Shown in pieces: positions 23,445-47,282 of a stretch of 64,000 nucleotides of DNA; the stretch's first letter is position 1, and every line of letters starts with the position of its first letter. The stretch lies in NCBI GenBank assembly GCA_945870425.1, contig CAMBSD010000010.1, forward strand, positions 13,653 through 77,652, written 5' to 3'. Source of the DNA: Chitinophaga pinensis. Its GTDB lineage: Bacteria; Bacteroidota; Bacteroidia; UKL13-3. The translations under genes and the position numbers were made by a program. Below the pieces are notes generated by a model that searched no databases, had not been told where the DNA came from, and saw only the letters and a list, made by a program, of their open reading frames with translations.

Positions 23445-24518
23445 ATGAGGCTTGTTGTTTTCACCATATTGTTTTTAATAGGTACTTCAACATTTGCACA
23501 AAATGATTTTTACAAATTAAATTTTGGCTTACAATCCGCTATTGGATTTGCTTGGGCGCATGATGATAAGGTAAGTACAATAAAAGACACCTATTTATCA
23601 AACCTTACTTTTGAAATAAGCAAATACCATTTCGGAAACATGGCTGAAAAATTGTGTAAAAAAGGCTATTACAATGGTTTTCAATTTTCTTATTTCCGTT
23701 TTAATAATGATATTCTAGGGCATTCTTACATTGCTTCCTATTTTTTAGAACCCATTTTATTAAAAACAGAAAACATAAAATTAAGTCTAAGGGCAGCTTT
23801 GGGTTTGGCATATGCTAACAATCCCCATGATAGCATTACCAATCCACTAAATAAAAATTATAGTTTATATGTGAATCCATACCTTAATTTAGGTTTAAAT
23901 GTAAGATACCAAATAAACGGAGGTAGCGCTATTAAAGCTTGCGTGCACTATAACCACATTTCAAATGGCAATATACAAGACCCTAATTATGGTTTAAATT
24001 TTCCTAGTATGAGTCTAGGAATAGAAAAAACAATAAATACCTATAAAAACACTCAAAAGATAATAGATGAAAAGTCAAATTGGCGTTTGGACTTAGCTTT
24101 ATTTGCTAGTAACAAAAGCAGCACACTAAGCCTGAAAGATAGATTTTGGGTATATGGATTAGGTTTGAATCTGAGTAGAAAAGTAAATTTACTTCATGCC
24201 TATACTATTGGTGCAGAATGTATGGCTGATGAATCTGTTCGGTTTTTATACCAAATGGAGTTACGAAAAGGAAGAAGTTTTTATCGTTTAGGAGCCAATG
24301 TTGGACATGAATTCTTATTAGGTAGCAAATTTATATTTAGTCAACAAATTGGAGTTTATATATTCAATCAAACCCCTTATATTTCTTGGATATACCATCG
24401 ATGGGGTCTTAATTACAAACTGACGGAAAATATTATGATTGGATCTAATCTTTTAGCGGATTTGCAAAAAGCAAATTTCCTGGATTTGAGAATGACATAC
24501 AGCATTATCAAAAAATAA
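23445..24518 (+). CDS. Acyloxyacyl hydrolase / PagL-like outer-membrane beta-barrel
   Basis: Signal peptide, YNHISNG..QDPNYGLN catalytic-type motif, alternating beta-strand pattern. Confidence 0.75.
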   Translation: MRLVVFTILFLIGTSTFAQNDFYKLNFGLQSAIGFAWAHDDKVSTIKDTYLSNLTFEISKYHFGNMAEKLCKKGYYNGFQFSYFRFNNDILGHSYIASYFLEPILLKTENIKLSLRAALGLAYANNPHDSITNPLNKNYSLYVNPYLNLGLNVRYQINGGSAIKACVHYNHISNGNIQDPNYGLNFPSMSLGIEKTINTYKNTQKIIDEKSNWRLDLALFASNKSSTLSLKDRFWVYGLGLNLSRKVNLLHAYTIGAECMADESVRFLYQMELRKGRSFYRLGANVGHEFLLGSKFIFSQQIGVYIFNQTPYISWIYHRWGLNYKLTENIMIGSNLLADLQKANFLDLRMTYSIIKK

Positions 24519-24645
24519 AAAATATTGAATTAAGAATAGTTGAAAAAAAATGCCAAGTATGCAACCAATTTTCTAGAATAGTTTACTTCTTATTAAATAA
24601 AAGTAATTTTATTGAAAAATATTATAGATTGGTGGCGGAATTTTG

Positions 24646-25587
24646 ATGCCAATGCAAGTAATAATTGTGGATGATGTTCATCCAATTCTAATAAATGGTT
24701 TGAAGGAAGATAATTTCATAGTTGATTATTTGCCTGGTGCGAGTGAGAATGAAATACTTTCTGTTATTCAGAATTATGAAGGCATAGTAGTGAGGAGTAA
24801 ATTGCAATTGGGTGAACAAGTTTTATCCAAAGGTTCAAAACTAAAATGGATTGCTAGGGCAGGAAGTGGAATGGATAATGTGGATGTTGAATTTGCAACT
24901 AGAAATAATATTATTTGTTTGAATGCTGCAGAAGCCAATGCAGATTCAGTAGGTGAACATACGGTGGGCATGTTGCTATCATTGATGCACAAATTAAATC
25001 AAGCTGATCTTCAGGTAAGAGCCAGTATCTGGGATAGGGAAGGAAACAGAGGCGTTGAAATAAGTAGCAAAACCATTGGTATTGTGGGTTTTGGGCATAC
25101 AGGGAAATCCGTTGCCAAGAAACTAAGTGGTTTTGGATGTAAGATTTTGGTCTATGATAAGTATCTTGAGAATTATGGAACTGGGAATACCCAACAATCT
25201 GAAATGGACCAAATTTTTGAGGAATGTGATATCATTACTTTTCATGTTCCATTGACCAAAGAAACAAAAGGGATGGTAGATAATATTTACCTAAATCGCT
25301 TCAAAAAGTCGATTTATTTGCTGAATTTGAGCCGAGGAAAGGTAATTAGGACAAAAGATTTGGTGAAGTGTATGGAAAGTGGAAAAGTTTTGGGAGTGGC
25401 CTTGGACGTCTTGGAAAATGAAAAAATTGGAAAATTGAGTGAGGATGAAAAAGAGTGGTTTGAATATTTAATTCACTCAAAGCGAACACTTTTAGCCCCT
25501 CATGTGGGGGGGTGGAGTAAAGAAAGCTATCAAAAAATTTCTGAATCGTTATTGTTGAAAATAAAAGAATTAAAGAGCAAAATTTAA
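24646..25587 (+). CDS. D-2-hydroxyacid / phosphoglycerate dehydrogenase family protein
   Basis: IARAGSGMDNVD, GIVGFGHTG, FHVPLT, NLSRG, APHVGG. Confidence 0.9.
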   Translation: MPMQVIIVDDVHPILINGLKEDNFIVDYLPGASENEILSVIQNYEGIVVRSKLQLGEQVLSKGSKLKWIARAGSGMDNVDVEFATRNNIICLNAAEANADSVGEHTVGMLLSLMHKLNQADLQVRASIWDREGNRGVEISSKTIGIVGFGHTGKSVAKKLSGFGCKILVYDKYLENYGTGNTQQSEMDQIFEECDIITFHVPLTKETKGMVDNIYLNRFKKSIYLLNLSRGKVIRTKDLVKCMESGKVLGVALDVLENEKIGKLSEDEKEWFEYLIHSKRTLLAPHVGGWSKESYQKISESLLLKIKELKSKI

Positions 25588-25687
25588 ATTACTTAAAAGG
25601 CAAATAGAGATGATAGTTGATAAATTAAATTAATCTGCTTTTATTTACCACCTTTTAGTAAGCGTAATAAATTAATAAATCTGTAAT

Positions 25688-28600
25688 ATGATGAAAAAAA
25701 TATACATCCTACTCATTGCATTATTTGCCATTCACTTTGCGGCACAAGCACAGTCTGGTTTTGGCGAAATCCGTGGTAAAGTAATTGATGAAAAGACTAA
25801 GAAACCTATGGATTATGTTACGGTAACAGCCTATTTGAATGGTATTGCCAAAGCATCCACCCAAACAGATGACGAAGGTGGTTATACTTTCAAAACGCTT
25901 CAAGTTGGAGAATACAGCATTAAAGCCTACTACTCTGGTTACCCGCTTCAAACAGTTACTGATATTGGTGTAAATCCTGATGGAATTACATTTGTAAATG
26001 TTACAATGGAGCAAAATGTTAATCTGAAAGAAGTTGTAATTAAAGACAAACCTGCCTTGATTAGAAAAGATGGTGTGAGTGGTGCTCAATTTAACGCTGC
26101 CAAGATTATGGCCTTGCCACAACGTAACGTAAATGCAGTTGCAAATTTAACAGCTGGTGTTGAAAGTCGTGGTGGTGCTACGCCAAACATACGTGGTGGA
26201 CGTTCTGAAAATACTGCCTATTATATTGACGGTATTCGTGTGCAAGGCGGATCTAGTACAGGTATCGCTTCAAATGCTATTGACCAAATCCAAGTAATTA
26301 CGGGTGGTACACCGGCACAATATGGTGACTTTATTGGTGGGGCTATCTCAATCACAACAAAAGCCCCAACTAAAAGATTTATTCGTTCAATAGAATATAC
26401 TACTTCAACTCCTTTTACGGGTTATTTAGATAACTCGCAATTTAACCAATTAGAGGGCGTATTGTCGGGCCCACTTAAAATAATAAACAAAGGTAAAGGT
26501 GATAAAGAAAGAGTTTTGATTGGATTTTTACTTTCTACCAATATCAACTACCAATTAGATGGTCGCTTACCTTCAACAGATATTTATAAAGTAAACGACA
26601 CCAAATTAGCCGAATTACAAGCACGTCCTTTGACATTGGCTTCAAATGGTTCGTTGGTTTATTCTGCTGAATTCCTGCGAAAAACAGATTTGGAAAAGGT
26701 TGATTACCGACAAAATGTTCCGCAATATGCTATCAATTTGCAAGGTAACTTCAATTTCCAACCTGCCGAGAATATAAACATACGTTTAGGATATCAAGGT
26801 AATTATTTTAACGGTCGCGACTATAGCTATTATAGTTCTTTGATGAATGCTTCCAACAATCCTTTAAGAAATGATTATACTGTAAGAGCTTATTTACAAT
26901 TCACTCAAACTTTCAACAAAAAGAAAGATGAAGAGAAGGATAAAAAAGAAGCTAAAGGTGGCATAACAGATGCATTCTACACTGTTAGGGTTTCCTATGA
27001 AAATCGATTCGTTGAAGTGATGGATGCAGTTCACCAAAAGAATTTCTTTGATTATGGTTATATCGGACAATTCAAAACCTATAAAGCACCAGCTTTCGAA
27101 AGAATTAGTAAGTCATTTGGTCAAGCCCCTGATACTTTTAAAGTGAATGGAAATGATTATTATTTAACCAGTTATTGGAAGCAAAACTCCTTTAGAGACA
27201 CAGCTTATAGATTTGTTCCTGGTGATGCAAACCCAGTTTTAGCAAATTACACTAAAACTGTTTATGACTTGCTAGGAAACAGTAATATACGCACAGTGGA
27301 TGACTTATTAGGTTCTCGCGGTTTGACAAACGGAAGTCAGCCTGATGGTATTTATTCATTTATGTGGGGTAATGTGGGAACCAACCAAGCTTCATATGCT
27401 AAATTAAATAATGAAACCTATTCGGCATATATTATGAGTGAAGCGAGTGTTGCGCCAAAAAGTAATCCTAAAGCTAAGCACGATTTGCAATTCGGTATTA
27501 ATATAGAGCAACAGTACAATAGATCATACAGTTTAGGTGCTGTAGGTTTATGGACAGCCATGAGACAATTAGCTAATGAGAAATTCCCAGGCGAAGGTAA
27601 CTTAGACCCTGCTACCGCTAAACTAAAATTTGATGCCAACGGTGTTTTCCAAGATACTGTAACCTTTGATAGAGCAGTTGCTGATAGCTTAACCAATCAA
27701 TTTGGTGAAAACTTAAGAAATAAATTGCGTGATATGGGAGCCACCGACATTTCTGGAAGACCTATTGATAGTAAGTCTTACATTGATGTTAATTCATACA
27801 ATCCTAATACCTTCTCTTTAGATATGTTCAGTGCAAATGATTTATTAAGAAATGGTGTAGGTTCATTAGTTAGTTATAATGGATATGACTATTTAGGAAA
27901 TAGAGTGGGCGGACAACCTGGGATCAAAGATTGGATTAAAAACAGAGCATTACCAGCATATCAGCCAACATACGCTGCAGCTTGGTTCCAAGATAAATTT
28001 GTATTTAAAGATTTAATTTTACGTTTAGGTGTGCGTGTTGAAAGGTTTGATGCAAATCAACCTGTGTTAAAAGATCCATTTTCATTGGTTCCAATCTATA
28101 CCGCTGGAGATGTTAAAAACGGCAATATCAAAGGATTGGCAAGTCAAATACCAAGTACCATTGGTGATGGATATGCGGTATATGTTGACAGAGCAGGTGT
28201 AGACCAAGCCCTATCGAATAACAACATTAATATAACTGGATTTAGAAGTGGCGATAAGTGGTATGATAAAAATGGTAATTATGTATCAGACCCAAATACT
28301 TTGAATAAAAACTATCAAACCTTAAATGGACAAAATGCTCCATTATTGGTTGATCCAACCAAACCTGAAACACCAACTGAAAATTCATTTAAAGATTATG
28401 TTCCGGATGTAAAAGTTTCTCCTCGCGTTTGGTTCTCGTTCCCTATTTCAACAACATCGCAGTTCTTCGGTACTTACGATATCTTAACGCAAAGACCTGC
28501 AGCTGCTGGATTTAGTCCAAACAACGCACAATTTGATGATTATTTCTTCTTACAATATAGAAGAGGTGGAGCTATCAATAATCCTGATTTGAAATTTACA

Positions 28601-29488
28601 CAAGTAACTGATTATGAAATTGGTTTCCGTCAACAAATTGGAGATAATTCAAGTTTAGGTATCATTGGTTCATACCGTGAGTTCAAAAACTTGATTCAAC
28701 AATACAAATATGTTCAAGCTTGGCCATTTGACTATATCACCTATGGAAACTTAGATTTCTCTACTGTTAAAAGTTTCCGATTGGAATATGAGTTGAGAGA
28801 TTTAGGTAACGTAAATATCTCAGCAAACTATCAATTGCAATTTGTTGAAGGAACAGGTTCAGGAACTAATACTTCAGGTAATTTAGTCAATGCTGGTTTG
28901 GGCCAGTTAAGAACTGTATTCCCTCTAGATTACGATACACGTCATACCATCAAAGGTACATTTGACTTCCATTATAAAGATGGTAAGAAATATGATGGTC
29001 CAGTTGTAAGAGGTAAGAAAATTTTAGAAAATGCAGGTTTCAATATTATATTTAATACTGTTTCGGGTAGACCGTATACCCAAAATACAATCGCAGTGCC
29101 TGAAGGATTAAGTGGTGTTTCGGCTCGTTCTCCAATTAAAGGTACTATCAATGGTTCAAACCTACCTGCACAGTTTTATACCGACTTAAACGTTGATAAG
29201 AACTTTACTTTCACAAGCAAAAAAATTGATGGAAGAACGGTTGAATACAGAATGAGAATATTCTTAATCATTCAAAACTTATTTAATGAAGCCAACGTTC
29301 TAGGCGTATACAGATATACAGGTAGTGCCTATTCAGATGGGTTTGTTACTTCTCCGCAAGCAATTGAAAGTTTGCGTGCTTCAACCAATGTACAATCTTT
29401 TGTTGACTTGTATAATACAAGGATAGTTAATCCTGGCAATTTTGCCTTGCCTCGTTTAACCCGTTTTGGTATTCAATTAACATTTTAA
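25688..29488 (+). CDS. Large TonB-dependent receptor with N-terminal carboxypeptidase-regulatory-like domain
   Basis: GEIRGKVID N-terminal domain, plug NIRGGR..NTAYYIDG and QVITGG.PAQYGD..GG, barrel motifs LRLGVRVERFD and SPRVWFSFPIS, C-terminal PR..RFGIQLTF. Confidence 0.9.
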   Translation: MMKKIYILLIALFAIHFAAQAQSGFGEIRGKVIDEKTKKPMDYVTVTAYLNGIAKASTQTDDEGGYTFKTLQVGEYSIKAYYSGYPLQTVTDIGVNPDGITFVNVTMEQNVNLKEVVIKDKPALIRKDGVSGAQFNAAKIMALPQRNVNAVANLTAGVESRGGATPNIRGGRSENTAYYIDGIRVQGGSSTGIASNAIDQIQVITGGTPAQYGDFIGGAISITTKAPTKRFIRSIEYTTSTPFTGYLDNSQFNQLEGVLSGPLKIINKGKGDKERVLIGFLLSTNINYQLDGRLPSTDIYKVNDTKLAELQARPLTLASNGSLVYSAEFLRKTDLEKVDYRQNVPQYAINLQGNFNFQPAENINIRLGYQGNYFNGRDYSYYSSLMNASNNPLRNDYTVRAYLQFTQTFNKKKDEEKDKKEAKGGITDAFYTVRVSYENRFVEVMDAVHQKNFFDYGYIGQFKTYKAPAFERISKSFGQAPDTFKVNGNDYYLTSYWKQNSFRDTAYRFVPGDANPVLANYTKTVYDLLGNSNIRTVDDLLGSRGLTNGSQPDGIYSFMWGNVGTNQASYAKLNNETYSAYIMSEASVAPKSNPKAKHDLQFGINIEQQYNRSYSLGAVGLWTAMRQLANEKFPGEGNLDPATAKLKFDANGVFQDTVTFDRAVADSLTNQFGENLRNKLRDMGATDISGRPIDSKSYIDVNSYNPNTFSLDMFSANDLLRNGVGSLVSYNGYDYLGNRVGGQPGIKDWIKNRALPAYQPTYAAAWFQDKFVFKDLILRLGVRVERFDANQPVLKDPFSLVPIYTAGDVKNGNIKGLASQIPSTIGDGYAVYVDRAGVDQALSNNNINITGFRSGDKWYDKNGNYVSDPNTLNKNYQTLNGQNAPLLVDPTKPETPTENSFKDYVPDVKVSPRVWFSFPISTTSQFFGTYDILTQRPAAAGFSPNNAQFDDYFFLQYRRGGAINNPDLKFTQVTDYEIGFRQQIGDNSSLGIIGSYREFKNLIQQYKYVQAWPFDYITYGNLDFSTVKSFRLEYELRDLGNVNISANYQLQFVEGTGSGTNTSGNLVNAGLGQLRTVFPLDYDTRHTIKGTFDFHYKDGKKYDGPVVRGKKILENAGFNIIFNTVSGRPYTQNTIAVPEGLSGVSARSPIKGTINGSNLPAQFYTDLNVDKNFTFTSKKIDGRTVEYRMRIFLIIQNLFNEANVLGVYRYTGSAYSDGFVTSPQAIESLRASTNVQSFVDLYNTRIVNPGNFALPRLTRFGIQLTF

Positions 29489-29499
29489 TAATTACTCAT

Positions 29500-32400
29500 A
29501 TGAAAGTATATACATATAAAACTCAATTTTTTAAAAGTTTATTATTCTTACTTGCTATTGCAACATCAGGCGCTAACCTATACGCAAAAGAGAATGTAAG
29601 AAACAGAGAAGAGAAAAGAACACCCTCTAATCAAATGGCAATCGGACAGATTTTACAGAAAGGTTCAGGATGTACGGTGGGTTCTCAGCAGAAAGAATTG
29701 TCAATTAATAATGTTCGCACTCGTATTTTGAATGGGGGAGACATGTGGTGGGATTTACAAAGCGCGAAATATGAAATACCAAAAGTACCTGCAGGACAAG
29801 TTTCAAAGAACTCATTGTTTGCTGGAGCTTTATGGATTGGTGGTGTAAGTAGTGGAAACTTAAGATTAGCTGCCCAAACTTACCGTCAAGGTGGTAGTGA
29901 TTATTTTCCTGGGCCGCTTATCGCTGGTTCTGCAACTATTTCATCATCTCGTTGTAAAGATTTCGATAAAATTTGGAAGATACAGTTACAAGAGATTGTT
30001 AATTTTCAGAATGATGCACAAGCAGCTGTAGATGCAAATAATGATTTTTTAACTTGGCCAGGTAATGGAAAAGTATCAGACGGAGAGGCTGCATTTCTCG
30101 CACCTTATTACAATGCCCCAAGCGATGAAGCAAAAGGTATCATAAATGACCCCAATTTATATGAGCCTGAAAAAGGAGATTTTCCTTCACTAGACCAAAA
30201 CAGAAAAGACAATATTCCTGATGAAATGATTTATATTCTTTATAATGATAAAGGAAATGTTCATACTGAAACAGGAGGGCTTCCAATTGGATTGGAATTA
30301 CATACACAATGTTTTGCTTTTGCTACAAACAATGAATTGAACAATACTACATTATATAGAACTACTATCTATAACAGAGGAAATGAAACAATTGACTCAT
30401 GTGTTTTTGGTCAATGGGTTGATCCTGATTTAGGTAACTATACAGATGATTATGTTGAGTGTGATTTAGCTGTTGATCCTGTAAACAATGTTCCAAGAAA
30501 TTTGGGTATTTGTTATAATGGTGATGATAATGATGAAGGTGTATTTGGTTATGGATTGAATCCCCCTAGTATTGGTGTTCGTTTTTTCGAAGGTCCTAAG
30601 AAAGCCGATGGAACCTTATTGGGTATGACTAAATTTATTTATTATAACAATGACTTTTCTGTAATAGGTAATCCCAATAGACCATCAGATTATTGGGGTT
30701 ATTTGAATGGAAGATGGAAAGATAACAAAGTAATTACTTACGGTGGAAATGGTAGAGACGGGGCTGATACATCTAGCTTTATGTTCCCTGGTAAAACCGA
30801 TCCAGCTGGAAGGGTTAATTGGACGGAAAGAACTGCCAACAACGCTCCTGGTGATAGACGTTTTCTTCAAACTTCAGGTCCATTCAGTATGTTGCCTGGA
30901 GCCGTAAATAAAGTAACTGTTGGTGTTGTTTGGGCTAGAGCAACCACTGGAGGTGCCACAGGGTCATTCAATTTACTGAAAACAGCTAGTGATAGAGCTT
31001 ATCAATTGTTTAAAGCTGATTTTGTTAATCCCAAATCACCGATTGCGCCTGATGTAACAATTACTGAATTAAATAGAGAGTTAATTTTAACCCTTAATAA
31101 CTATAAGACAACAGAATCTTTTGTAGACACCATCAAAGGGCCTTGCAATGAAAAAACTAAAATTAAATTTCAAGGATATAAAATTTATCAATTGAAAAAC
31201 AATAATTCAGGAGCTGATTTATCAGATCCAACCCAAGCAAAATTGGTAGCTCAGTGTGATATTCAAGATGAATATACCAGATTGACCAATGTTGTAAGAG
31301 ATATAGAGTTGGGTCAATCATATAAAGTTGTTCAAGTAGATGGAGAAAATAAAGGTATTAGACATACTTTTAGTTTAACCCAAGATGCATTCTCTACCCT
31401 TTCAGATAGAAGATTTGTTAATTTTAACGAATACCATTTCTTGTTGGTTGCTTATGCTAATCCTGTAAACTGTCCAATTGTTGAAGAACAATACATTTCA
31501 GGAAGTACAAATATTTCAACAGGTACTTCATTAGTGCATACGGGTACACCTCATGATCCAACCCCAAGAGCAGAAGGTTCTGTTATTAACTCAAGTTTAA
31601 ATACCGGCCCTGAAATTACTAGGATTGAAGGTATTGGAAATGGCGGTAATACAATAAGACTTTCAAGAAAAACAATCGAAGAATGTTTAACTTCACCAAA
31701 TTATGCTGCTATAGCACCTACCTACGAAAAAGGATTTAGCCCTGTTACTATTAGAGTATTTGATCCATTCAAAGTTCCATTAGCTGATTTTGAATTGAAA
31801 TTGGTTGATAGTTCTTCTTATGGCAATAAAGCAGATTCTATTTCAGCTCCAAGCACAAGATGGTTTTTAACTAGACTTGGTCCTAATTCTAAAACTATTT
31901 CATCTGAAGTTGCTATTTCTGTTAATAATGAGCAAATAATAGAAGAGTGGGGATTAGCACTTAATGTCACCTCTACAATCAGGCCGGGAAATCAAACATC
32001 TCAGTTTGACTTGACAAATGGTTTTATTTCGGGAGAATTGACTTATGAAAATACTTCAAACAGATGGTTGACGGGTGTGGCGGATGAAGATGCTAACTAT
32101 CTATCTAGTATGGGATATCCTGAGTCTGTGACCATTCCTTTTAATTGGATTAGGTCGGGGGCAAGTGGAAAATCTAATAACTATAATGATCCTTTAAGAA
32201 ATGACTTTTCGATTGGTGGTGAGGCAATGGATGCTGGTAAAAACTTTGGTAAAATATTAGGAGGCACTTGGGCTCCTTACGGATTGGCTGCAAAAGAGGT
32301 AAGTACGAATACCCCTACTTTAGGACCTGGATGTAAAATCACAACAGGGGGTGGAAGTACTGATAATACATTGAATGATTTACAAAGCGTAGACATTGTG

Positions 32401-33426
32401 TTTACAAACGATAGAAGCAAGTGGAGCAGATGTGCGGTAGTTGAAACAGGAGAGTTAGCTGCATTTAATGTTGGAAATGCCGACAAATTTGACCTTAGAG
32501 CTTCTCCATCTGTAGATAAATTTGGTAAGCCTGACGGCACTGGAAATGGTATGGGTTGGTTCCCTGGCTACGCAATTAATGTTGAAACAGGTGAACGTTT
32601 GAACATTATGTTTGGAGAAGATTCTTCTATTCCATCAGAAAATGGAAATGACATGATTTGGAACCCTACCAAAAATCTTCTTTCAAAAAATTTCTTAAGC
32701 CCGGTATTTGGCGGAAAACATTATGTCTATATTATGGGTAACAAGAAGTTTAAATCGGGAACTAAAGAGGTTGGTACTAAATATGACTTATGTGCCTCAT
32801 ATGCTTCTATATTAAGTGATGCAAGTATCTCTAATAAGTCATTAAGAAAAAGATTGGTATTTTCTCAAGCTATGTGGGTTACTATGCCTATGGTTAAAAA
32901 CGATAGAAATGTAAGTTTAGCTTCAATTGAAGGAGGTATTGTGCCGAATGAAGTTACTGTTCGATTAAGGGTTAAACGTCCTTATGCAAAATACATCAAT
33001 TCGCTAACCACCACACCTTTGGCTAATGACAGCGCTCCATTGTATAGATTCTCAACAGCTAGTGTTTTTCCTGATAAAGCAAATTCAGACGCTGCCAAAA
33101 AAGCTTTGGACATGATTACCGTTTCTCCTAATCCTTATTATGCTTATGCAGGTTACGAGAATCCAAATAACCAATTGGATACCAGAGTTAAGATCATTAA
33201 TTTACCAAATAAATGTACGGTATCAATCTTTACCATGAACGGTTTCTTGGTACGAAGATTTAAAAAGGATGATGACAAAACCCATTTAGATTGGGATTTG
33301 AAAAATGAAGCCTTAGTTCCTATTGTGAGTGGTATATATTTGGTTCATATTGATGCTCCAAATATGGGTGAGAGGGTTATTAAATGGTTTGGAATTATGC
33401 GTCCTGTAGATTTTGATACATTCTAG
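29500..33426 (+). CDS. Large T9SS-secreted protein of unknown function
   Basis: Signal peptide; INNVRTRILNGGDMWWD and LFAGALWIGG; C-terminal VSPNPYY...IINLP..CTVSIFTMNG.LVR...WDLKN...SGIYLVHI (FlgD-Ig-like CTD). Confidence 0.85.
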   Translation: MKVYTYKTQFFKSLLFLLAIATSGANLYAKENVRNREEKRTPSNQMAIGQILQKGSGCTVGSQQKELSINNVRTRILNGGDMWWDLQSAKYEIPKVPAGQVSKNSLFAGALWIGGVSSGNLRLAAQTYRQGGSDYFPGPLIAGSATISSSRCKDFDKIWKIQLQEIVNFQNDAQAAVDANNDFLTWPGNGKVSDGEAAFLAPYYNAPSDEAKGIINDPNLYEPEKGDFPSLDQNRKDNIPDEMIYILYNDKGNVHTETGGLPIGLELHTQCFAFATNNELNNTTLYRTTIYNRGNETIDSCVFGQWVDPDLGNYTDDYVECDLAVDPVNNVPRNLGICYNGDDNDEGVFGYGLNPPSIGVRFFEGPKKADGTLLGMTKFIYYNNDFSVIGNPNRPSDYWGYLNGRWKDNKVITYGGNGRDGADTSSFMFPGKTDPAGRVNWTERTANNAPGDRRFLQTSGPFSMLPGAVNKVTVGVVWARATTGGATGSFNLLKTASDRAYQLFKADFVNPKSPIAPDVTITELNRELILTLNNYKTTESFVDTIKGPCNEKTKIKFQGYKIYQLKNNNSGADLSDPTQAKLVAQCDIQDEYTRLTNVVRDIELGQSYKVVQVDGENKGIRHTFSLTQDAFSTLSDRRFVNFNEYHFLLVAYANPVNCPIVEEQYISGSTNISTGTSLVHTGTPHDPTPRAEGSVINSSLNTGPEITRIEGIGNGGNTIRLSRKTIEECLTSPNYAAIAPTYEKGFSPVTIRVFDPFKVPLADFELKLVDSSSYGNKADSISAPSTRWFLTRLGPNSKTISSEVAISVNNEQIIEEWGLALNVTSTIRPGNQTSQFDLTNGFISGELTYENTSNRWLTGVADEDANYLSSMGYPESVTIPFNWIRSGASGKSNNYNDPLRNDFSIGGEAMDAGKNFGKILGGTWAPYGLAAKEVSTNTPTLGPGCKITTGGGSTDNTLNDLQSVDIVFTNDRSKWSRCAVVETGELAAFNVGNADKFDLRASPSVDKFGKPDGTGNGMGWFPGYAINVETGERLNIMFGEDSSIPSENGNDMIWNPTKNLLSKNFLSPVFGGKHYVYIMGNKKFKSGTKEVGTKYDLCASYASILSDASISNKSLRKRLVFSQAMWVTMPMVKNDRNVSLASIEGGIVPNEVTVRLRVKRPYAKYINSLTTTPLANDSAPLYRFSTASVFPDKANSDAAKKALDMITVSPNPYYAYAGYENPNNQLDTRVKIINLPNKCTVSIFTMNGFLVRRFKKDDDKTHLDWDLKNEALVPIVSGIYLVHIDAPNMGERVIKWFGIMRPVDFDTF

Positions 33427-33439
33427 TACTTTAAAACAA

Positions 33440-34543
33440 ATGAAAATTACAATGAAAAGATCTTTAAAAATAGTATTAATAATTTGTGCAATGGCACTTC
33501 AGAATGTGCAAGCAGGAAATCCTGATAGGGCAGGAGGGGCAGGTGCTACACAGTTATTATTTAACCCTTATGCAAGGTCATTTGGCTATGGAGGTGTAAA
33601 TACGGCATCAGTAAAAGGCCTAGAGTCATTTTACCTGAATATTGCCGGTTTAGCAAATGCTGATAAAACAGAGGTAACCTTCTCTCGTCAAAATTATTTG
33701 ATGGGTGCGGGTGTAAATATTAATAACCTTGGTATTGCACAAAAAATAGGTGAAAATGGTGGTGTTATTGGTTTAGGAGTTATGTCATTTGATTTTGGCA
33801 ATATTCCAACTGCTTCATATGAAAACCCTGATTTAACATTACCTTTTTATAATCTTCAGGTACTTAATTTTGGTTTCTCATATGCAAAGAAGTTCTCGAA
33901 TAGTATATCTGGTGGTATTCTATTGAGAATAGTTTCTGAAGGAGTATCTAATGCAAGTTCTAGTGGTGTTTGCTTTGATGGAGGTGTTCAGTACCAAACT
34001 TCATTAAATAGAACTAAGAAAATCAAAAAAGAGGATTTTAGATTTGGTATCTCTGTTAGAAATCTAGGAGCTAATATGTCTTATTACGGTAATGGTTTGT
34101 CGTTTCGTTCAATTAACCAATCAACTGGTGCTGATAGAAGGGCTTTAATGGCCGCAGAATCATTTAATATGCCAGCTTTGGTGCACATTGGTGCCTCTTA
34201 TGATATGCGTTTAGATGCTAACCCTGATACCTATAATCATAAATTGACCGCGTCTGCTAATTTTAATTATAATGCCTTTCAATCTGATGTTTTGGGTTTA
34301 GGTGCAGAATATTCGTACAAAGATGCTTTTATGGTTAGAGCTGCTTATAACCATATTGATGGTAATTTTAGTTCTACTGATAATAGACAACCGGTTTATG
34401 GAATCTATACAGGATGCACTCTTCAAATGCCAGTTACTAAGACAGGAACTATCTTGGCATTCGACTATGGTTATGCCCCAACTAGATTCTTTAGTGGTAT
34501 TCAAACCATTGGAGTTAGATTATCTTTAGGAAATAGTAAATAA
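33440..34543 (+). CDS. PorV/PorQ family outer-membrane beta-barrel
   Basis: GNPDRAGGAGATQLLFNPYARS, NIAGLA, YAKKFS..ISGG, FDGGVQY, FGISVRNLG; ATG at 33440 or 33452 preferred over TTG at 33413. Confidence 0.85.
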   Translation: MKITMKRSLKIVLIICAMALQNVQAGNPDRAGGAGATQLLFNPYARSFGYGGVNTASVKGLESFYLNIAGLANADKTEVTFSRQNYLMGAGVNINNLGIAQKIGENGGVIGLGVMSFDFGNIPTASYENPDLTLPFYNLQVLNFGFSYAKKFSNSISGGILLRIVSEGVSNASSSGVCFDGGVQYQTSLNRTKKIKKEDFRFGISVRNLGANMSYYGNGLSFRSINQSTGADRRALMAAESFNMPALVHIGASYDMRLDANPDTYNHKLTASANFNYNAFQSDVLGLGAEYSYKDAFMVRAAYNHIDGNFSSTDNRQPVYGIYTGCTLQMPVTKTGTILAFDYGYAPTRFFSGIQTIGVRLSLGNSK

Positions 34544-34564
34544 AGAGTTATATTTGTTCACACA

Positions 34565-34603
34565 AAAGAGAAACGTTCGGCTTCGGTCCGGACGTTTCTT
34601 TTG
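34565..34603 (+). terminator. Rho-independent terminator closing the receptor-cargo-PorV operon
   Basis: agaaacgttcgg-cttcggt-ccggacgtttct followed by Ts. Confidence 0.75.
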
Positions 34604-34638
34604 TTTTAATATTAAACCAAAAACAAGATAAAGAGAGT

Positions 34639-35115
34639 ATGAGCGATATTAATTATGTATCAAAAGAGGGATTTGAAAGAATGCAGAAAGAACTTTATGA
34701 ATATAAATTTGTAAAGCGCCCTTTCATATCGAAACAAATCGCAGACGCACGTGATAAAGGTGATTTGAGTGAAAATGCAGAATACCACGCTGCTAAAGAA
34801 GATCAAGGTTTGCTTGAAACTAAAATTGCCCAATTAGAAGATATTATAACAAAGACAAGAATCATTGATGAATCTAAACTTGATATTAGCAAAGTAATGA
34901 TGCTTACTAAGGTTACAGTTCTCAATCATAATGTAAAAAAAGAATTCACCTATATGATTGTATCCGACTCAGAAGCTGATATGAAATTAGGTAAGATCTC
35001 AACAAAATCTCCAATTGGTGCAGGTTTAATTGGCAAGAAATTGGGTGATATTGTTGAAATAAATGCCCCTGCGGGTGTCATAAAATTAGAAGTTATAAAT
35101 ATTAGTCTTACTTAA
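34639..35115 (+). CDS. greA: Transcription elongation factor GreA
   Basis: ARDKGDLSENAEYHAAKEDQ, ISTKSPIGAGLIGK. Confidence 0.98.
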   Translation: MSDINYVSKEGFERMQKELYEYKFVKRPFISKQIADARDKGDLSENAEYHAAKEDQGLLETKIAQLEDIITKTRIIDESKLDISKVMMLTKVTVLNHNVKKEFTYMIVSDSEADMKLGKISTKSPIGAGLIGKKLGDIVEINAPAGVIKLEVINISLT

Positions 35116-35116
35116 T

Positions 35117-35515
35117 ATGTCGAGTATTTTCACTAAAATTATTAATGGTGAAATTCCATGTTATAAAATAGCTGAAAGCAAAGATTACTTTGCTTTTTTA
35201 GATATAAGACCTTTAACCAGGGGGCATACCTTAGTTGTACCTAAAGTTGAAGTGGATTATATTTTTGATTTGGAAAATGAACTTTATGCAGGGTTGTATT
35301 TGTTTTCTAAAATTGTTGCTGAGGCAATTCAAAAATCTGTTGATTGTAAGAGGGTTGGTACAGCTGTAATTGGCTTAGAAGTGCCTCATGCACATATTCA
35401 TTTGATTCCATTTAATACGATGAATGAAATGAATTTTAGTAATCCCAAATTAGAGTTATCTAAAGAAGAAATGCAGGCTATTGCCAATCATATTAAAAGC
35501 AATCTACCTGCCTAG
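35117..35515 (+). CDS. HIT family protein
   Basis: IFTKIINGEIP, GHTLVVPK, VPHAHIHLIP. Confidence 0.96.
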   Translation: MSSIFTKIINGEIPCYKIAESKDYFAFLDIRPLTRGHTLVVPKVEVDYIFDLENELYAGLYLFSKIVAEAIQKSVDCKRVGTAVIGLEVPHAHIHLIPFNTMNEMNFSNPKLELSKEEMQAIANHIKSNLPA

Positions 35516-35527
35516 TTTTTCGTCTTT

Positions 35528-38500
35528 CTATGGAGTTGACTTAATAATTCCCAAGCTACTATTGATGTCAATCAAAGGATAGTCATTAAAGTCTGTGGAT
35601 GCATCACCATTTAAATCGGTTGCTACATATCCTAAATCTCCATTTGAGCTAGAAATATCTAATGTTGGATAATCATTGAAATCTATGGAACCATCTTGGT
35701 TTATATCTCCACTGAAAATAGCGTATATACCATTCCCCATATCCACCAAGTTACTGCTATAAGCTTGTCCTATTCCACTACTAAAATTGTAGTTGGTTAT
35801 GGCTGAAATGAATACTGGATTTGCACTCCAAGTTTCAATAGCATTCCTATGTAATACTGAGATATAATAGGAGTTGCCAATACTTGCCCCTGGCAATATG
35901 ATGTTTGATAGGCCATTTATATCTAATGTTGATTTTTGAGAGTATTGCGTGGAAAATGGTGCAGTGGATGAATGTAATTCAATCGTAACTGTATCTGCAA
36001 TGCTTAATGATGAGGTGGCATCTGCATTTCTTGGTGCGCTTGTCATTTGATTATTACCAGTGTATAAACCTTGAATGAATGCCGTAATATTTAGGTTAAC
36101 AACATTCGAAGTTATTACTGAGTCAATAGTTGAATTTACTGAGGCGCCACTGGTATTGATGGATTTCAGTCGGTAGTAGTATTTAGTATTAGGATTTAAA
36201 CCTGAAACCATGCTATTATTACCTATAACTGACAAGGCATTGTATCCAGTTATAAAACTTGTAAAGCTTCGATTTGATGATACATCTATGGTGTATGATG
36301 CTGCACCTAGAGCAGGTGTCCAATTTGCCTTGAAACTGTTAGTGCTTATTGTATTTGCAAACAATGCAGTTGGTGGATTGCTGATTGTAGTTATGCTTGA
36401 TTTAGTTGAATTTCCTGAACTGCAGTTACCTATAGATTTTACCCTACAATAATATACTGTTCCAGCAGCCAATCCTGTAATAACTTTGGAATTAGTAGCT
36501 ACGCTTAAAGCATTATAGCCAGAAACAAAGCTGCCAAAATTTGAGTCTATAGATACATCAATTGTATAGGATGTTGCTCCAACTACACTTGACCAATTTG
36601 AGGTAAATGAGTTGACATTTGCTGAAGCACTTGTTAGGTTTGTAGGAGCATTTAGTATGGGGTTAACAGTCACTAATACGGTATCCCTATTTTGAATTCC
36701 TGAAAGGTTATGGGTGGCAGTTACAAAATAGGTGGTTGAAGAACCAGGAGTGGCACTTGGGTTACTAATGTTGGATGCACTTAAACCTGTTATTGGACTC
36801 CATGTGTATGACAAACCATTAACAGATGCACTACCAATACTTGTTGATGCTCCAGTACAAATACTCTTGTCGATGCCTGCATTGGCTGCTACAGTTGCTG
36901 TAACATTTATGTTATCAAGATATAATTTATTGCCATAGCCATTTATATTTTGAAAAGCAATAATCACGCTTGATTGTCCTATATATGGAGTTAAATTAAT
37001 TGAATCCTTTCTCCATTGTGCAGCATTTGGAATAAAGCTAACTGAAGCACTTCCAGCGGTAGATAAGGTAGTTCCACCTTTGGCATATATTCTTGTGAAA
37101 GTGGCACCACAATCTGTAGAAAGTAAAACGGCTAAGGTGTCAGAATATCCCGAATATACTTGGTAGGCTACATCAAAAGTTACCCTAGCAGAATTATAAT
37201 TAGATAAGTCAAACCTGCTAGTTTGAATCTCATCTTTTTGACCCACAATATTCCAACTATAATTATCAAACATCATCGAGTTGGTGGAAGTTGCAAAACC
37301 TCCTGCTGTTGATGCCTTAACCCAAGCATTTCCTACGGTTCCATTATCTATATTTTTCCATCCAATGGGTGGATCAGTGGTTCCTTCAAACCCTTCTGAA
37401 ATGGGCAGATTACCACCACTTGTATTGATGTAATTGCTTTTATTGGCTGTACTGTTGTTTGTGCCATCTGATACCGTTAAGGAAACATTATAAACACCTG
37501 AAGGGAAGGTGACAGTCGGGTTTGATAAAGTTGAACTTGATGGTGTGCCCCCCGTGAAGGTCCAATTTCTGCTTGCTACATTTCCAGTAGATAAATCCGA
37601 AAAGGTAACAGTAGCTCCTGGGCATGGGTTTGTATTGTCAGCTATAAAATTACAGGTAAGGGCTCTTAAATTATTAATAGGTGTTTCCCACATTCCTCTT
37701 CCATAACTTGTATATCGTAACAGTGTATTGGATGTACTGTCGTTAAAAATTGAGATATCAATAGCATCGGTTCTTGAAGGTAAGTTAGTATTGAAAATGG
37801 TCCAGGTATTAGCTGTGGCTATTTTGTAATAAACAGTATTATTGCTTGCAATAAATACCAATTCATTGCTTGAATAATATTCGTCAGCTATAATTTTATC
37901 GTGGTTGACTGAAGGTAGGTTGAATGTGATATTGGTCCAAGTAGCTCCGTTATTTGTTGAGCGATATACCTTGGTATTGATTGTTATGTATATGGTATTA
38001 ATATTTGATTTTATGGTAGTGATATTTGCTTCATTGTTACTTGTGTTGGGTAGTGTGTAGCTTGTAAAACTAGGCGTGGCTGCCAAAGCATTTGTACTCA
38101 CATAAATCAACCCATCGCTTGTGATTACATACAATCTATTTGCATCTGCGAAGTGACAATGCATGGCCATAATTTTTTTACCAAAGTTTGCAATTTGTGA
38201 CCAGCTAGGCGCTCCAGCTGTGAGGTTTGTTGTGCGATAAATTATGGTATCACTTGCAAAAGCTAGGTTAGGATTGCTTCTATGAAAGGTAATATCTGTA
38301 ATATCTTCAACGGTTGATGGAAGTCCATAAGTAGCTTCGCTGCCATTAACTAATCTCCTTTTAGGTAAATTTCTAGCTCCCCAATCTGGATTGTAATAAT
38401 ATGCCATAGAGCTATTAGGCCTGTAATCAAAAACACAATGCGATTGCCAATCGCCACCACGATTGGTGAACCACCCTGATGAATTTGCATATAACTCACC

Positions 38501-39697
38501 ATTGTCTTGTGTGCCAATGCTAAACATATCTCTTCTAGTTGGACTGCAACTACCATGGTATATCTCATATCCCGCTATGCCATCACTTTTGGGAGTCCAA
38601 TTATTTCCCCCATCAACACTTAAAAAAATACCTCCATCATTAACATTGTATAGGTTTGCATTATTATAGGGTGAAGTAATAATTTGGTGCATATCAGTAT
38701 GACATTTTTGCCACCAGTTCGTAAGTTGTGTCCATGTTACTCCGCCATCCGTTGATTTCCAATTATTGTGGGCCACTAGGTATAAAATATTTGCATTGGT
38801 TCTATCTACTCCAATACCAAAATTATAATCTCCTTGACCAGATGAGGTTGGTGAATTATCATAATAGGTAAGGTATGGTGATGCTGTGTTTTTTACTGCC
38901 GAGAATGAAAGTCCTCCATTAATAGACTTGTAAACTGTGCCGCTATTTGCCACCATAGCGAGGTAAACCACATTGGTATCAGCGGGGGTTACTGCAATTC
39001 TACATCCATTTCCGTTGGTAATTCCTGAGGGTAAAACGATACCTGATGTAATTTGTGTCCAAGTATCGCCAAAGTCTAACGAGCGGAAAAATGCCGAATC
39101 TCTGGTAGCTGCATACAATGTTCTTGAAGTAGGTGTTTTTTGCTTTAAATCACCAAAACCCCTTGACGCTGTTTTTAGTGTCCATGTTGAACCTGCATCA
39201 TTGGTTTTATAAATACCTGTATTGGTAATGGCTACTATGCTGTTGTTATTGTTAGGGTCCATTACCATATCAATTACTAATTTACCTGTTAGGGAAGTTT
39301 GGGTAAATGTTTGACCACCATTGGTAGATTTCATTACCCCATTTCCGGAATAATAATAATTACGATCACCTGTTCCCAAGTATATAATTTGGTCATTTGT
39401 ATAATCAATACAAACTGATGCTAATCTAGCACTTGCCATAAAATCAGTACCAGGCGCAACTACCCAATTAGCACCAGCGTCAGTGGTAATAAATAAGCCG
39501 CCCCGAGCACTTACTGCATACATTTTATTGGCATTACTTGCGTGAAATTTTAGTTGACTTACGCGACTAATGCCATTTATTTGACCGCTTGCATTGGTAG
39601 GAAATTTGGTTGGTAATACAGCAGACCAATTGGCTGATTGAGAATAGCCAATGAATGTGCAAATAAGAGATAGTAATAGAAGTAGATATTTTTTCAT
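35528..39697 (-). CDS. Secreted VPS10/BNR (Asp-box) beta-propeller protein with PKD, two FN3 domains and a dockerin-like C-terminus
   Basis: Repeated S/T-x-D/N-G-G-x-x-W/F boxes, PKD (FSDLSTG...WTFTGG), FN3 repeats (ITGLAAGTVYYCRV; VSGLNPNTKYYYRL), paired GDINQDGSID / DLNGDASTD loops. Confidence 0.85.
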   Translation of the reverse strand: MKKYLLLLLSLICTFIGYSQSANWSAVLPTKFPTNASGQINGISRVSQLKFHASNANKMYAVSARGGLFITTDAGANWVVAPGTDFMASARLASVCIDYTNDQIIYLGTGDRNYYYSGNGVMKSTNGGQTFTQTSLTGKLVIDMVMDPNNNNSIVAITNTGIYKTNDAGSTWTLKTASRGFGDLKQKTPTSRTLYAATRDSAFFRSLDFGDTWTQITSGIVLPSGITNGNGCRIAVTPADTNVVYLAMVANSGTVYKSINGGLSFSAVKNTASPYLTYYDNSPTSSGQGDYNFGIGVDRTNANILYLVAHNNWKSTDGGVTWTQLTNWWQKCHTDMHQIITSPYNNANLYNVNDGGIFLSVDGGNNWTPKSDGIAGYEIYHGSCSPTRRDMFSIGTQDNGELYANSSGWFTNRGGDWQSHCVFDYRPNSSMAYYYNPDWGARNLPKRRLVNGSEATYGLPSTVEDITDITFHRSNPNLAFASDTIIYRTTNLTAGAPSWSQIANFGKKIMAMHCHFADANRLYVITSDGLIYVSTNALAATPSFTSYTLPNTSNNEANITTIKSNINTIYITINTKVYRSTNNGATWTNITFNLPSVNHDKIIADEYYSSNELVFIASNNTVYYKIATANTWTIFNTNLPSRTDAIDISIFNDSTSNTLLRYTSYGRGMWETPINNLRALTCNFIADNTNPCPGATVTFSDLSTGNVASRNWTFTGGTPSSSTLSNPTVTFPSGVYNVSLTVSDGTNNSTANKSNYINTSGGNLPISEGFEGTTDPPIGWKNIDNGTVGNAWVKASTAGGFATSTNSMMFDNYSWNIVGQKDEIQTSRFDLSNYNSARVTFDVAYQVYSGYSDTLAVLLSTDCGATFTRIYAKGGTTLSTAGSASVSFIPNAAQWRKDSINLTPYIGQSSVIIAFQNINGYGNKLYLDNINVTATVAANAGIDKSICTGASTSIGSASVNGLSYTWSPITGLSASNISNPSATPGSSTTYFVTATHNLSGIQNRDTVLVTVNPILNAPTNLTSASANVNSFTSNWSSVVGATSYTIDVSIDSNFGSFVSGYNALSVATNSKVITGLAAGTVYYCRVKSIGNCSSGNSTKSSITTISNPPTALFANTISTNSFKANWTPALGAASYTIDVSSNRSFTSFITGYNALSVIGNNSMVSGLNPNTKYYYRLKSINTSGASVNSTIDSVITSNVVNLNITAFIQGLYTGNNQMTSAPRNADATSSLSIADTVTIELHSSTAPFSTQYSQKSTLDINGLSNIILPGASIGNSYYISVLHRNAIETWSANPVFISAITNYNFSSGIGQAYSSNLVDMGNGIYAIFSGDINQDGSIDFNDYPTLDISSSNGDLGYVATDLNGDASTDFNDYPLIDINSSLGIIKSTP

Positions 39698-46369: not shown

Positions 46370-46385
46370 AACATTCAACTACAAA

Positions 46386-47282
46386 ATGAAAAAACTAATT
46401 ACTTCCATTCTTTTAATTTGTGCCATCAATTCATTGTTTGCGCAAACAATTCCCAATGCTAGTTTTGAGAATTGGACTTTTAAAAATTCGAAATTTTATG
46501 ACCCAGATGGCTGGGGCACTTTAAACCCAATGACATCTCCTGCAAATTTAATTACTTGCAACAAAGGCACTGCTTCCCCAGCGCCTAATGCAGGTATTTC
46601 ATATTTGATGTTATCTTCTAAATCACTAAGTGGACAAACTTTGGGTGCAATTGCAGTTTCAGGGACTTTCGATCCACTAACGGAAGAATTCGGTGGAGGT
46701 TTTGCCATTAATTCAAAACCTTCTAAACTAAACGGTAAATGGCAATACATGGCCCAAGGCGCTGATCAAGGTGCCGTGGCTATCATACTTACTAAACAAA
46801 ACGCAACAACGGGAATGAAAGATACCATGGCAATGGGTGGTCAATTACTTCAAGGAATGGCAATGAGTTGGGCTAGCTTTTCAATTGATATTAATTATTT
46901 ATCTAATGCAATGCCTGATTCTTGTTTAATTATTTTCTTAGCAAGTGGCGGAAATCCTGTTGCAGGAAGTTATTTGTACATAGATGATTTGTCATTTTCA
47001 GGAAATACATCAGTGAGTGAAATAAGTAATTTTAGTTTTTATAATGTGTATCCAAATCCTGTAAAAGAAAAGCTTAACCTTGAAATTAATTTAAAACAAA
47101 ACACTTTGGTTCAAGTTGAAGTGATAGACATTCAAGGTAAACAAATTAAAGCGCAAGATTTTGCTATGAATAAAGGCGAAAATCAAGTTTCAATTGATTT
47201 GTCTGATGTTCAAAAAGGAATTTATATTGTAAGAATGACTGCAGACGGAGAGAGCCTTTCTCAGAAATTAGTAGTCGAATAA
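46386..47282 (+). CDS. T9SS type A cargo protein (IPNASFENW / PCMD-like domain)
   Basis: Signal peptide, IPNASFENW, GSYLYIDDLSF, CTD VYPNP...GIYIVRM...QKLVVE. Confidence 0.85.
   Translation: MKKLITSILLICAINSLFAQTIPNASFENWTFKNSKFYDPDGWGTLNPMTSPANLITCNKGTASPAPNAGISYLMLSSKSLSGQTLGAIAVSGTFDPLTEEFGGGFAINSKPSKLNGKWQYMAQGADQGAVAIILTKQNATTGMKDTMAMGGQLLQGMAMSWASFSIDINYLSNAMPDSCLIIFLASGGNPVAGSYLYIDDLSFSGNTSVSEISNFSFYNVYPNPVKEKLNLEINLKQNTLVQVEVIDIQGKQIKAQDFAMNKGENQVSIDLSDVQKGIYIVRMTADGESLSQKLVVE

Follow-up and report, generated by a model that had tools for sequence, protein, structure and literature searches.

The window considered here is a stretch of 64,000 nucleotides from a genome deposited as Chitinophaga pinensis (assembly GCA_945870425.1, contig CAMBSD010000010.1, positions 13,653 to 77,652 of the forward strand). 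It contains a cassette of three genes, which code for a TonB-dependent transporter (gene 1), a large putative cargo protein of the T9SS (type IX secretion system; gene 2), and an outer-membrane barrel of the PorV/PorQ family (gene 3); coordinates are compiled in Table 1. The same gene order is found in other classes of the phylum, and the cassette looks like an undescribed alternative to the SusC/SusD pair of Bacteroidota.

The three plus-strand open reading frames (ORFs) are separated by gaps of 11 and 13 nt when translation of the barrel starts at the ATG at 33440; an in-frame TTG occurs upstream at 33413, and the ATG fits the MxMKK start of the aligned homologs. A terminator-like hairpin (34566–34602) begins 22 nt past the stop codon of the barrel gene. 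It is one of three terminator-like sites in the region 24400–35700, and no strong site of this kind was found between the triad genes in the same scan. ORF coordinates and hairpin agree with the initial annotation, which had described three same-strand genes with these gaps, closed by one terminator. Contigs of four freshwater metatranscriptome runs from three studies, picked because they hold this stretch, cover all three genes with 95–100% likeness and leave the flanks 24600–25333 and 34509–34875 nearly uncovered, where contigs cannot prove absence. Such contigs carry no information on transcript ends, on the strand or on a single transcript, and none of those listed clearly spans a gene junction, record 16 of run X2 (33400–33761) containing 27 letters before the cargo stop codon. 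DNA carry-over being possible, the contigs are a hint that the triad genes are expressed.

Table 1. Features of the transporter-cargo-barrel cassette (window positions)
Feature	Position	Strand	Remarks
TonB-dependent transporter (gene 1)	25688..29488	+	1266 aa; N-terminal signal peptide, CarboxypepD_reg extension, plug, 22-strand-type barrel
CarboxypepD_reg N-terminal extension, residues 28-108	25769..26011	+	PF13620, 54.9 bits
Plug domain, residues 135-218	26090..26341	+	PF07715, 37.8 bits
Cargo (gene 2)	29500..33426	+	1308 aa; secreted, almost all-beta, multi-domain, no Pfam family
Cargo galactose-mutarotase-like beta-supersandwich, residues ~58-572	29671..31215	+	VIA-align matches of a homolog; approximate boundaries
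Cargo T9SS type A-like C-terminal domain, residues 1219-1288, PorU/PorZ-like subclass	33154..33363	+	TIGR04183, 23 bits; local PorZ model match; C-terminal domain profiles
Cargo C-terminal tail KWFGIMRPVDFDTF, residues 1295-1308	33382..33423	+	Conserved; past the usual end of the C-terminal domain
PorV/PorQ-family outer-membrane barrel (gene 3)	33440..34543	+	367 aa from ATG 33440; NF033709, 121 bits
Intrinsic-terminator-like hairpin	34566..34602	+	15-pair stem with 6 G-C pairs, T run

Structure of the transporter and the cargo

An AlphaFold2 model of gene 1 (residues 119–1266, 40 aligned homologs) reached a predicted local distance difference test score (pLDDT) of 85.3 and a predicted template modelling score (pTM) of 0.82. 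Foldseek matched this model to solved TonB-dependent transporters, with YddB (6ofr) as the best match (E 5e-25), followed by PirA, PhuR, FhuA, XusA and BtuB with template modelling (TM) scores of 0.6–0.76, normalised to targets of 580–860 aa; the Foldseek probability was 1.00 for more than 40 solved transporters, each matched over its full length. According to the model, gene 1 thus is a real TonB-dependent transporter with about 400–450 additional residues, in line with the unusual length and the large insertions remarked upon in the initial annotation. The plug model PF07715 scores 37.8 bits, well above its cut-off of 23.9. Because the barrel model PF00593 gives no match at E ≤ 0.01 though the barrel fold is present, the sequence has to be regarded as divergent; no NCBIfam family, the SusC/RagA family TIGR04056 included, matches at E ≤ 0.01 either. 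The consensus of the homolog alignment shows a conserved LxEVVI motif preceding the plug, which we take to be a putative TonB box.

The cargo is not covered by any Pfam family, and its sole NCBIfam matches are TIGR04183, at exactly the cut-off of that model (23 bits), and the PorZ model, which matches locally with its C-terminus. Its family is large, with at least 4238 homologs at E ≤ 1e-3 among 8000 candidates scored. The 120 homologs listed are 43–98% identical and nearly full-length; where the source names them, these listed matches are called "hypothetical" or only "T9SS type A sorting domain-containing". Searches of the ESM Atlas led from the cargo to unnamed clusters only, including leads to Zixiibacteriota and Fidelibacterota with one member each, and from gene 1 to generic TonB-receptor clusters. 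Neither the cargo profile nor the barrel had a match in sequence searches of the PDB, and the transporter had a single one, at E 0.52, which was put down to chance. An alignment of 24 cargo homologs revealed an invariant Asp/Asn-rich block, FGQWVD.DLGN..DDYV.CD, and a tail of the pattern K-W-x-x-x-M-R-x-x-D-x-D-x-F following the C-terminal domain (CTD). This tail, KWFGIMRPVDFDTF, had been noticed before as an extension of the CTD and proved to be real, seven of its positions (K1295, W1296, M1300, R1301, D1304, D1306 and F1308) being invariant in the 24 homologs. In each of the 14 orthologous-group cargos compared at the C-terminus, about 10–14 residues follow the usual CTD end, the last residue being F, L or Y. 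The C-terminal Phe was also considered as a beta-barrel signal, which was ruled out because the cargo model consists of soluble beta-sandwich domains.

The fold of the cargo was taken from a 1092-aa homolog of another class (locus L118; 58 aligned sequences including the window protein), the model of which had a pLDDT of 81.2 and a pTM of 0.66. Its residues 46–516, corresponding to residues 58–572 of the window cargo in the alignment, were matched by VIA-align to 9ju0 (Z 19.6, 256 residues aligned, root mean square deviation 3.2) and to the glycoside hydrolase (GH) family 15 structure 1ulv (Z 18.7); further matches of this supersandwich were the N-domains of GH94, GH65 and GH116 enzymes (Z 16–18) and the P1 domain of YidC (Z 13). 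The remainder of the model is made up of beta-sandwich domains, with one helix of more than eight residues, at 441–460. The additional length of the window cargo as compared to the L118 protein lies mainly in residues 712–1018. No peptidase or transferase fold was detected in the cargo model by Foldseek or VIA-align, and VIA-align identified the N-terminal supersandwich as the sole cargo domain, with scant coverage of the middle and the C-terminal portions. PorZ (5m11), the top Foldseek match (E 1.6e-6), was dropped as a candidate for the cargo fold, since its TM score was only 0.10–0.13. The N-terminal part of the cargo (residues ~58–572) thus resembles the N-terminal supersandwich of GH15, GH65, GH94 and GH116 enzymes, with Z scores of about 16–19.6 over about 250 residues; this galactose-mutarotase-like fold is known from accessory domains of carbohydrate enzymes. 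However, these enzymes possess an (alpha/alpha)6 catalytic domain, and no such domain follows the supersandwich in the L118 model, in which residues 725–776 are of low confidence; sequence identity is 8–12%, without a Pfam or PDB sequence match. With the supersandwich alone matched, the cargo is not a member of these families.

Conservation, context and multiplication of the cassette

A scan of species-representative genomes yielded 80 loci, all of them from metagenome-assembled genomes of uncultured Bacteroidota (a few titles naming other taxa were taken as mislabels). By tblastn with the window proteins, 71 of these loci have all three genes, with order and strand unchanged. In seven of the nine loci without a full triad, the contig ends on the side in question; the others are L078, with no transporter within 4.7 kb upstream, and L083, an additional cargo copy that lacks both neighbours, whereas the L084 copy of the same genome has them. 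In a profile search of 401 genomes sampled across the phylum, 209 contained matches to the cargo profile, a figure which is not an ortholog count because many of the matches span the CTD only. No cargo match was found in f25 and f20, families without any SprA match (0/87 and 0/1 genomes), and none in f4 either, where six of seven genomes gave an SprA match. When profiles built from the close loci were applied to the 20 best-scoring cargo matches of other classes (termed far loci below), transporter, cargo and barrel occurred in the same order in 19 of them, the twentieth ending at a contig end after the cargo. This linkage is kept even where the transporter is only 22–31% identical. Synteny, proposed as a check in the initial annotation, is therefore kept in related and other-class loci alike, and the similar triads which it had mentioned from elsewhere were borne out within the phylum. 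Two tandem transporter genes precede the cargo gene at L079, L081 and L084, and two full-length cargo genes lie about 1.3 kb apart in G363:C15:28034-37393, indicating that the cassette can duplicate locally.

In the window, the triad is preceded by panB and by genes for an RluA-type pseudouridine synthase, a PagL-like protein and a 314-aa serA-like dehydrogenase, and followed by greA and a HIT gene. As had been noted from the sequence, SusD, a regulator or a clear glycoside hydrolase is not encoded nearby; a family scan of about 10 kb around the triad gave the same result. The sole hydrolase-like gene in the vicinity (35528–39697, minus strand, convergent) codes for a 1389-aa protein with Sortilin/BNR repeats, PKD and fn3 domains, which scores 97.5 bits with the F510_1955 glycosylhydrolase model, under the cut-off of 175. 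Among 12 same-class loci examined, 10 keep an ORF of ~315 aa upstream and ORFs of ~157 and ~132 aa downstream, which are the sizes of the serA-like, greA and HIT genes of the window (the computed triad span took in the upstream side of L079 and L084 and both sides of L085). The serA-type phosphoglycerate dehydrogenase gene that adjoins the transporter gene in the window (24643–25587, plus strand) codes for the short form, and a full-length form with an ACT domain is encoded directly upstream of the transporter in L120, L121, L124 and L132, that is, in four of the 18 far loci with flanks scanned. No carbohydrate-active enzyme (CAZyme) or LacI regulator was found beside orthologous-type triads in the flanks scanned.

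Several other genes recur near the cassette or resemble parts of it. A 720–746-aa tetratricopeptide repeat (TPR) protein flanks the barrel end in the far loci L121, L122, L126, L127 and L128, on the opposite strand in L126; weak matches to multihaem cytochromes were obtained for this protein in L121, L122, L126 and L127, not in L128. In L130, L132 and L134, an NHL-repeat protein of about 280–300 aa stands where the TPR protein stands in other far loci. At 44120–47282 of the window (plus strand), a gene for a 749-aa TonB-dependent receptor with a PF00593 barrel and a CarbopepD_reg_2 domain is followed after 16 nt by a gene for a 298-aa protein with a strong ordinary T9SS CTD (PF18962, 65.8 bits); the next gene codes for an ABC-F ATPase, and no barrel gene follows.

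The barrel profile found 15–22 matches in each of five genomes from other classes. We examined 19 regions around barrels of G369 and G233, genomes that were chosen, not sampled, and found that 16 of the 22 barrels therein follow a transporter and one large ORF of 643–1284 aa. The other six comprise two located directly after a transporter (L145, L156), a canonical PorV behind a C25-peptidase PorU (L148), and three in other arrangements (L140, L144, L147a). The middle genes of the 16 cassettes have no Pfam family. The cargo profile matches 12 of them with its C-terminal part; a CTD-like motif of the type GK(F/I)A(I/V)IK closes every one of the 16, and all lack the conserved tail. LacI regulators are encoded directly upstream of three of these cassettes (L143, L146, L158), and other flanks contain genes for a major facilitator superfamily (MFS) transporter, a GHL10 protein, a chondroitinase-B-like lyase, and carbohydrate-binding module family 9 (CBM9) proteins with ordinary CTDs. 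At E ≤ 1e-5, SusD_RagB (PF07980) had no match in G369, G233 and G165, all three of which are rich in such barrels, one in the window genome, on contig C3, and two in G018. A different arrangement was seen at L144 (G369:C1:450000-461000). One PorV-family barrel gene there comes after a tandem array of three paralogous ORFs, each of ~990 aa and CTD-like at its end, with no transporter in the region. Table 1 of PMC6987092 lists a xylan locus of Rhodothermus marinus with a LacI regulator (Rmar_1067), a TonB-dependent receptor (Rmar_1070) and two hypothetical proteins (Rmar_1071 and Rmar_1072), the first of which has a Por sorting domain. This locus may represent the cassette in a cultivable organism.

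The barrel, the sorting domain and their predicted interface

The gene 3 product falls within the PorV/PorQ family NF033709, with 121.4 bits (cut-off 90) over positions 4–307 of the 326 of the model, and stays far under the equivalog cut-offs for PorV (NF033710, 57.4 vs. 250 bits), PorQ (NF033711, 58.2 vs. 220 bits) and PorV2 (NF052325, 31.2 vs. 325 bits). Six PorV-family matches were obtained in the window genome (completeness 97%), among them canonical PorV (476 bits), encoded directly after PorU on contig C6, PorQ on C3 (322.8 bits) and PorV2 on C18 (410.7 bits). SprA, PorZ and 94 type A CTD matches are present as well. Since the genome has its own SprA, PorU-PorV, PorQ, PorZ and PorV2, the triad barrel is, as the initial annotation had presumed, a private extra paralog and not the sole canonical PorV, and it has a branch of its own in the tree. 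A quick IQ-TREE analysis of 52 PorV-family barrels, with a midpoint root only, united the 22 barrels that adjoin tail-bearing cargos in one branch (SH-aLRT 100), apart from PorV (99), PorQ (97) and PorV2 (100). Barrels of multiplied-type cassettes group elsewhere, together with six unassigned barrels, namely five of G369 and a paralog on contig C12 of the window genome (SH-aLRT 91). The C12 gene, which codes for a 334-aa protein, the closest relative of the triad barrel in the genome, is followed by a gene for a 418-aa NHL-repeat protein (L137:6566-8827), and the two may be another private barrel-partner pair. A TonB-like match in addition to the PorV-family gene had made C12 a candidate for a second triad; this was ruled out, as a histidine kinase gene and other genes intervene. 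The triad is present as a single copy in the window genome.

The CTD of the cargo is a poor match to the general models. TIGR04183 scores 23.0 bits (equal to the cut-off) and 28 bits in the genome scan, where the cargo ranks about 89th of the 94 type A CTD matches; PF18962 gives no match at E ≤ 0.01, and the TIGR04183 domain is followed by the 14-residue tail, so it does not form the protein end. Type B models did not match at E ≤ 0.01, neither TIGR04131 in the cargo nor TIGR03519 (PorP/SprF) in the barrel. All ORFs of the window genome were compared with two CTD profiles, one built from paralogous cargos of G369 and G233 only, the other from orthologous cargos found outside this genome. Both have the same top four, a 706-aa protein on contig C20, the cargo, PorU (third) and PorZ (fourth), and a PorU-like protein of 1681 aa ranks fifth with the paralogous and seventh with the orthologous profile. 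These top matches score far above the ~90 ordinary CTD proteins of the genome. The 706-aa protein (L159:4609-6729, minus strand) is the best match in the genome to the G369/G233 profile (E 2.9e-20), above PorU and PorZ; it has no Pfam or NCBIfam family and no adjoining PorV-family barrel. The PorU-like paralog (C3:116973-122018), which is additional to the canonical PorU on C6, reaches 155 bits with the PorU model, well under its cut-off, and has a PorU/PorZ-like CTD. As summarised in sections of PMC10202324, PorV is a shuttle for T9SS cargo, the CTDs of PorU and PorZ are retained and bound to PorV and PorQ, respectively, and cognate PorV-like barrels have been suggested to shield the CTD from cleavage; the same sections describe PorP/SprF proteins as co-encoded with their cargo.

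Co-folding of the barrel (residues 26–367) with the C-terminal part of the cargo (residues 1170–1308) gave an ipSAE (interaction prediction score from aligned errors) of 0.82 each time it was run (three runs), whereas none of the three controls exceeded 0.00. The runs share at least 88% of the contacts, the pLDDT of the partner is at least 74, and the tail residues 1295–1302 contact the barrel in the predicted complex. The mark applied is reached by 116 of 157 solved complexes and by 2 of 215 mismatched pairs, counts that apply only roughly here because alignments made for the present analysis went into the co-folding. The prediction supports binding of the CTD to the barrel without showing it. 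A confident interface of this kind was among the checks proposed in the initial annotation. Of the four outcomes named there as speaking against its interpretation, three were looked for, namely loss of synteny, identity of the barrel with the sole canonical PorV, and lack of a predicted interface, and none of them was found.

A putative SusD-independent uptake machine and its alternatives

A TonB-dependent transporter acting together with a surface lipoprotein is the central model of glycan, vitamin and iron uptake in Bacteroidota. The triad resembles the SusCD, RagAB, BtuB-BtuG and XusA-XusB systems in that a transporter, which in the triad carries a CarboxypepD_reg extension, is encoded beside a surface-exposed partner; like SusC/SusD-like loci, the cassette is multiplied in some genomes beside regulators and carbohydrate-active proteins. 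In contrast to the lipoprotein partner of SusC/SusD-like complexes, however, the partner in the triad is a putative T9SS cargo of 1000–1300 aa with a CTD and without the SusD fold, a PorV-family barrel is added as an invariable third gene, and the transporter does not match TIGR04056. With PorQ-PorZ and PorV-PorU, the triad shares the pairing of a PorV/PorQ-family barrel with a protein of the same type A CTD subclass, and in PorU and PorZ the retained CTD serves as the anchor, as stated in part of PMC10202324. The triad barrel differs in that neither the equivalog models nor the clades of PorV, PorQ and PorV2 include it, and the cargo lacks the C25 peptidase fold of PorU and the propellers of PorZ, but has the extra tail and a linked TonB-dependent transporter. 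SprF/PorP proteins and their type B cargo (SprB) likewise exemplify a private barrel encoded beside its own T9SS cargo; there, in contrast, no transporter is involved, whereas the triad has a barrel of the PorV/PorQ family and a type A-like CTD.

In the best-supported interpretation, which we consider somewhat probable, the cassette encodes a SusD-independent, TonB-dependent uptake machine. Its capture protein would be a T9SS export that a private PorV/PorQ-family barrel holds by the retained CTD and tail. Gene 1 would move the substrate into the periplasm, and gene 2 would be its surface partner, the N-terminal supersandwich of which would capture the substrate, most likely a glycan or another fragment of a large polymer. 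The cargo would leave through the ordinary T9SS of the cell; unlike normal cargo, it would not be cleaved and released, and its CTD, proposed to stay on because of its PorU/PorZ subclass and the extra tail, would plug into gene 3. The barrel would thereby anchor the partner in the outer membrane beside the transporter, where the two may be in contact, and would do the job of the lipid anchor of SusD and other surface lipoproteins. A glycan as substrate is suggested only by the cargo fold and by the context of the paralogs in other genomes.

Several observations weigh against this interpretation. Sharing the supersandwich fold is no demonstration that the cargo binds glycans, and a ligand site was not recognised in the model. 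The window triad itself sits among housekeeping genes, without a regulator, CAZyme or SusD-type context, and so behaves as a core gene set, not as an inducible nutrient locus; the context resembling a polysaccharide utilization locus (PUL) comes from the paralogous cassettes of other genomes, not from the window copy. The comparison with SusD covers one Pfam model (PF07980) and five genomes, and the far loci were selected as best-scoring cargo matches, not at random. PorV-CTD and PorV-cargo complexes have been solved, and the co-folding result may partly reflect likeness to these complexes instead of specific binding. Finally, retention of the CTD is argued by analogy, solely from the similarity to PorU and PorZ.

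A dedicated export shuttle is a rather unlikely role for the barrel. It would collect the big cargo at SprA, and the cargo, after processing by PorU and release or linkage to lipopolysaccharide, would feed the transporter in the manner of a hemophore or a binding protein. Such a role is compatible with the family of the barrel, with the predicted CTD-barrel interface and with the established function of PorV, and the linkage to the transporter fits a shuttle as well as an anchor. However, the CTD of the cargo groups with those of PorU and PorZ and not with the ~90 ordinary CTDs of the cleaved type, the conserved tail within the predicted interface suggests a lasting fit, and the genome already has a canonical PorV for shuttling.

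We also deem it quite unlikely that the triad is a housekeeping envelope module akin to the attachment complex of PorU, PorV, PorQ and PorZ, in which the TonB-dependent barrel would have a structural, signalling or export-linked role. Gene 1 possesses the complete plug and barrel of an importer, the cargo model lacks a peptidase or transferase fold, and the neighbours of the paralogous cassettes include LacI regulators, a lyase, CBM9 proteins and an MFS transporter, all of which argue against a module of this kind. Its attraction lies in the window copy, which is single, has a CTD of the PorU/PorZ kind and no substrate-specific enzymes or regulators nearby, and has serA-like, greA and HIT neighbours that are kept in 10 same-class loci, with serA also in four of the 18 far loci.

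The adhesion alternative of the initial annotation gained no support. In this alternative, cargo and barrel would be an adhesin, or a surface protein of the gliding type, and its private barrel, as in SprB-SprF, and the transporter would be a mere neighbour. The size, the beta-rich make-up and the surface location of the cargo would suit it, as would the private barrel of the PorV family (cf. the co-encoded PorP/SprF proteins treated in part of PMC10202324), but it is very improbable given the constant position of the transporter in 71/80 and 19/20 loci, even at 22–31% identity, the type A-like CTD without a type B match, the PorV/PorQ family of the barrel without a PorP/SprF match, and a model without repeat-rich filament architecture.

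In full-text literature searches, no account turned up of a cassette that combines a transporter with a T9SS cargo and a PorV-family barrel, while supplements could list such genes; triads of this kind are mentioned neither in passages of the Melioribacter genome paper nor, by term search, in a review on glycoside transporters from 2026. Beyond the uptake machine proposed for the triad itself, we tentatively put forward, as a possibility short of being probable, a phylum-wide second solution to nutrient capture at the outer membrane, parallel to SusCD and with a T9SS-delivered capture or lid protein, which comprises an ancient, tail-bearing core copy, often beside serA, and which in lineages lacking SusD has been multiplied into a dozen or more substrate-specific, PUL-like loci.

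Export of enzymes, adhesins and virulence factors is seen as the main task of the T9SS. If the proposal is true, the system builds uptake machines besides exporting enzymes and adhesins, and many of the "hypothetical" T9SS proteins of at least 1000 aa in environmental Bacteroidota and their relatives are partners of transporters. The cassette would give a role to an unnamed family of at least 4238 homologs, for which neither Pfam nor, beyond the sorting domain, NCBIfam has an entry, and would account for the many PorV/PorQ paralogs per genome. It would also put to a natural test the suggestion that a CTD is guarded from cleavage by its cognate PorV-like barrel. Lineages without SusD would gain a candidate equivalent of the polysaccharide utilization locus, which bears on carbon turnover in freshwater and sediment metagenomes.

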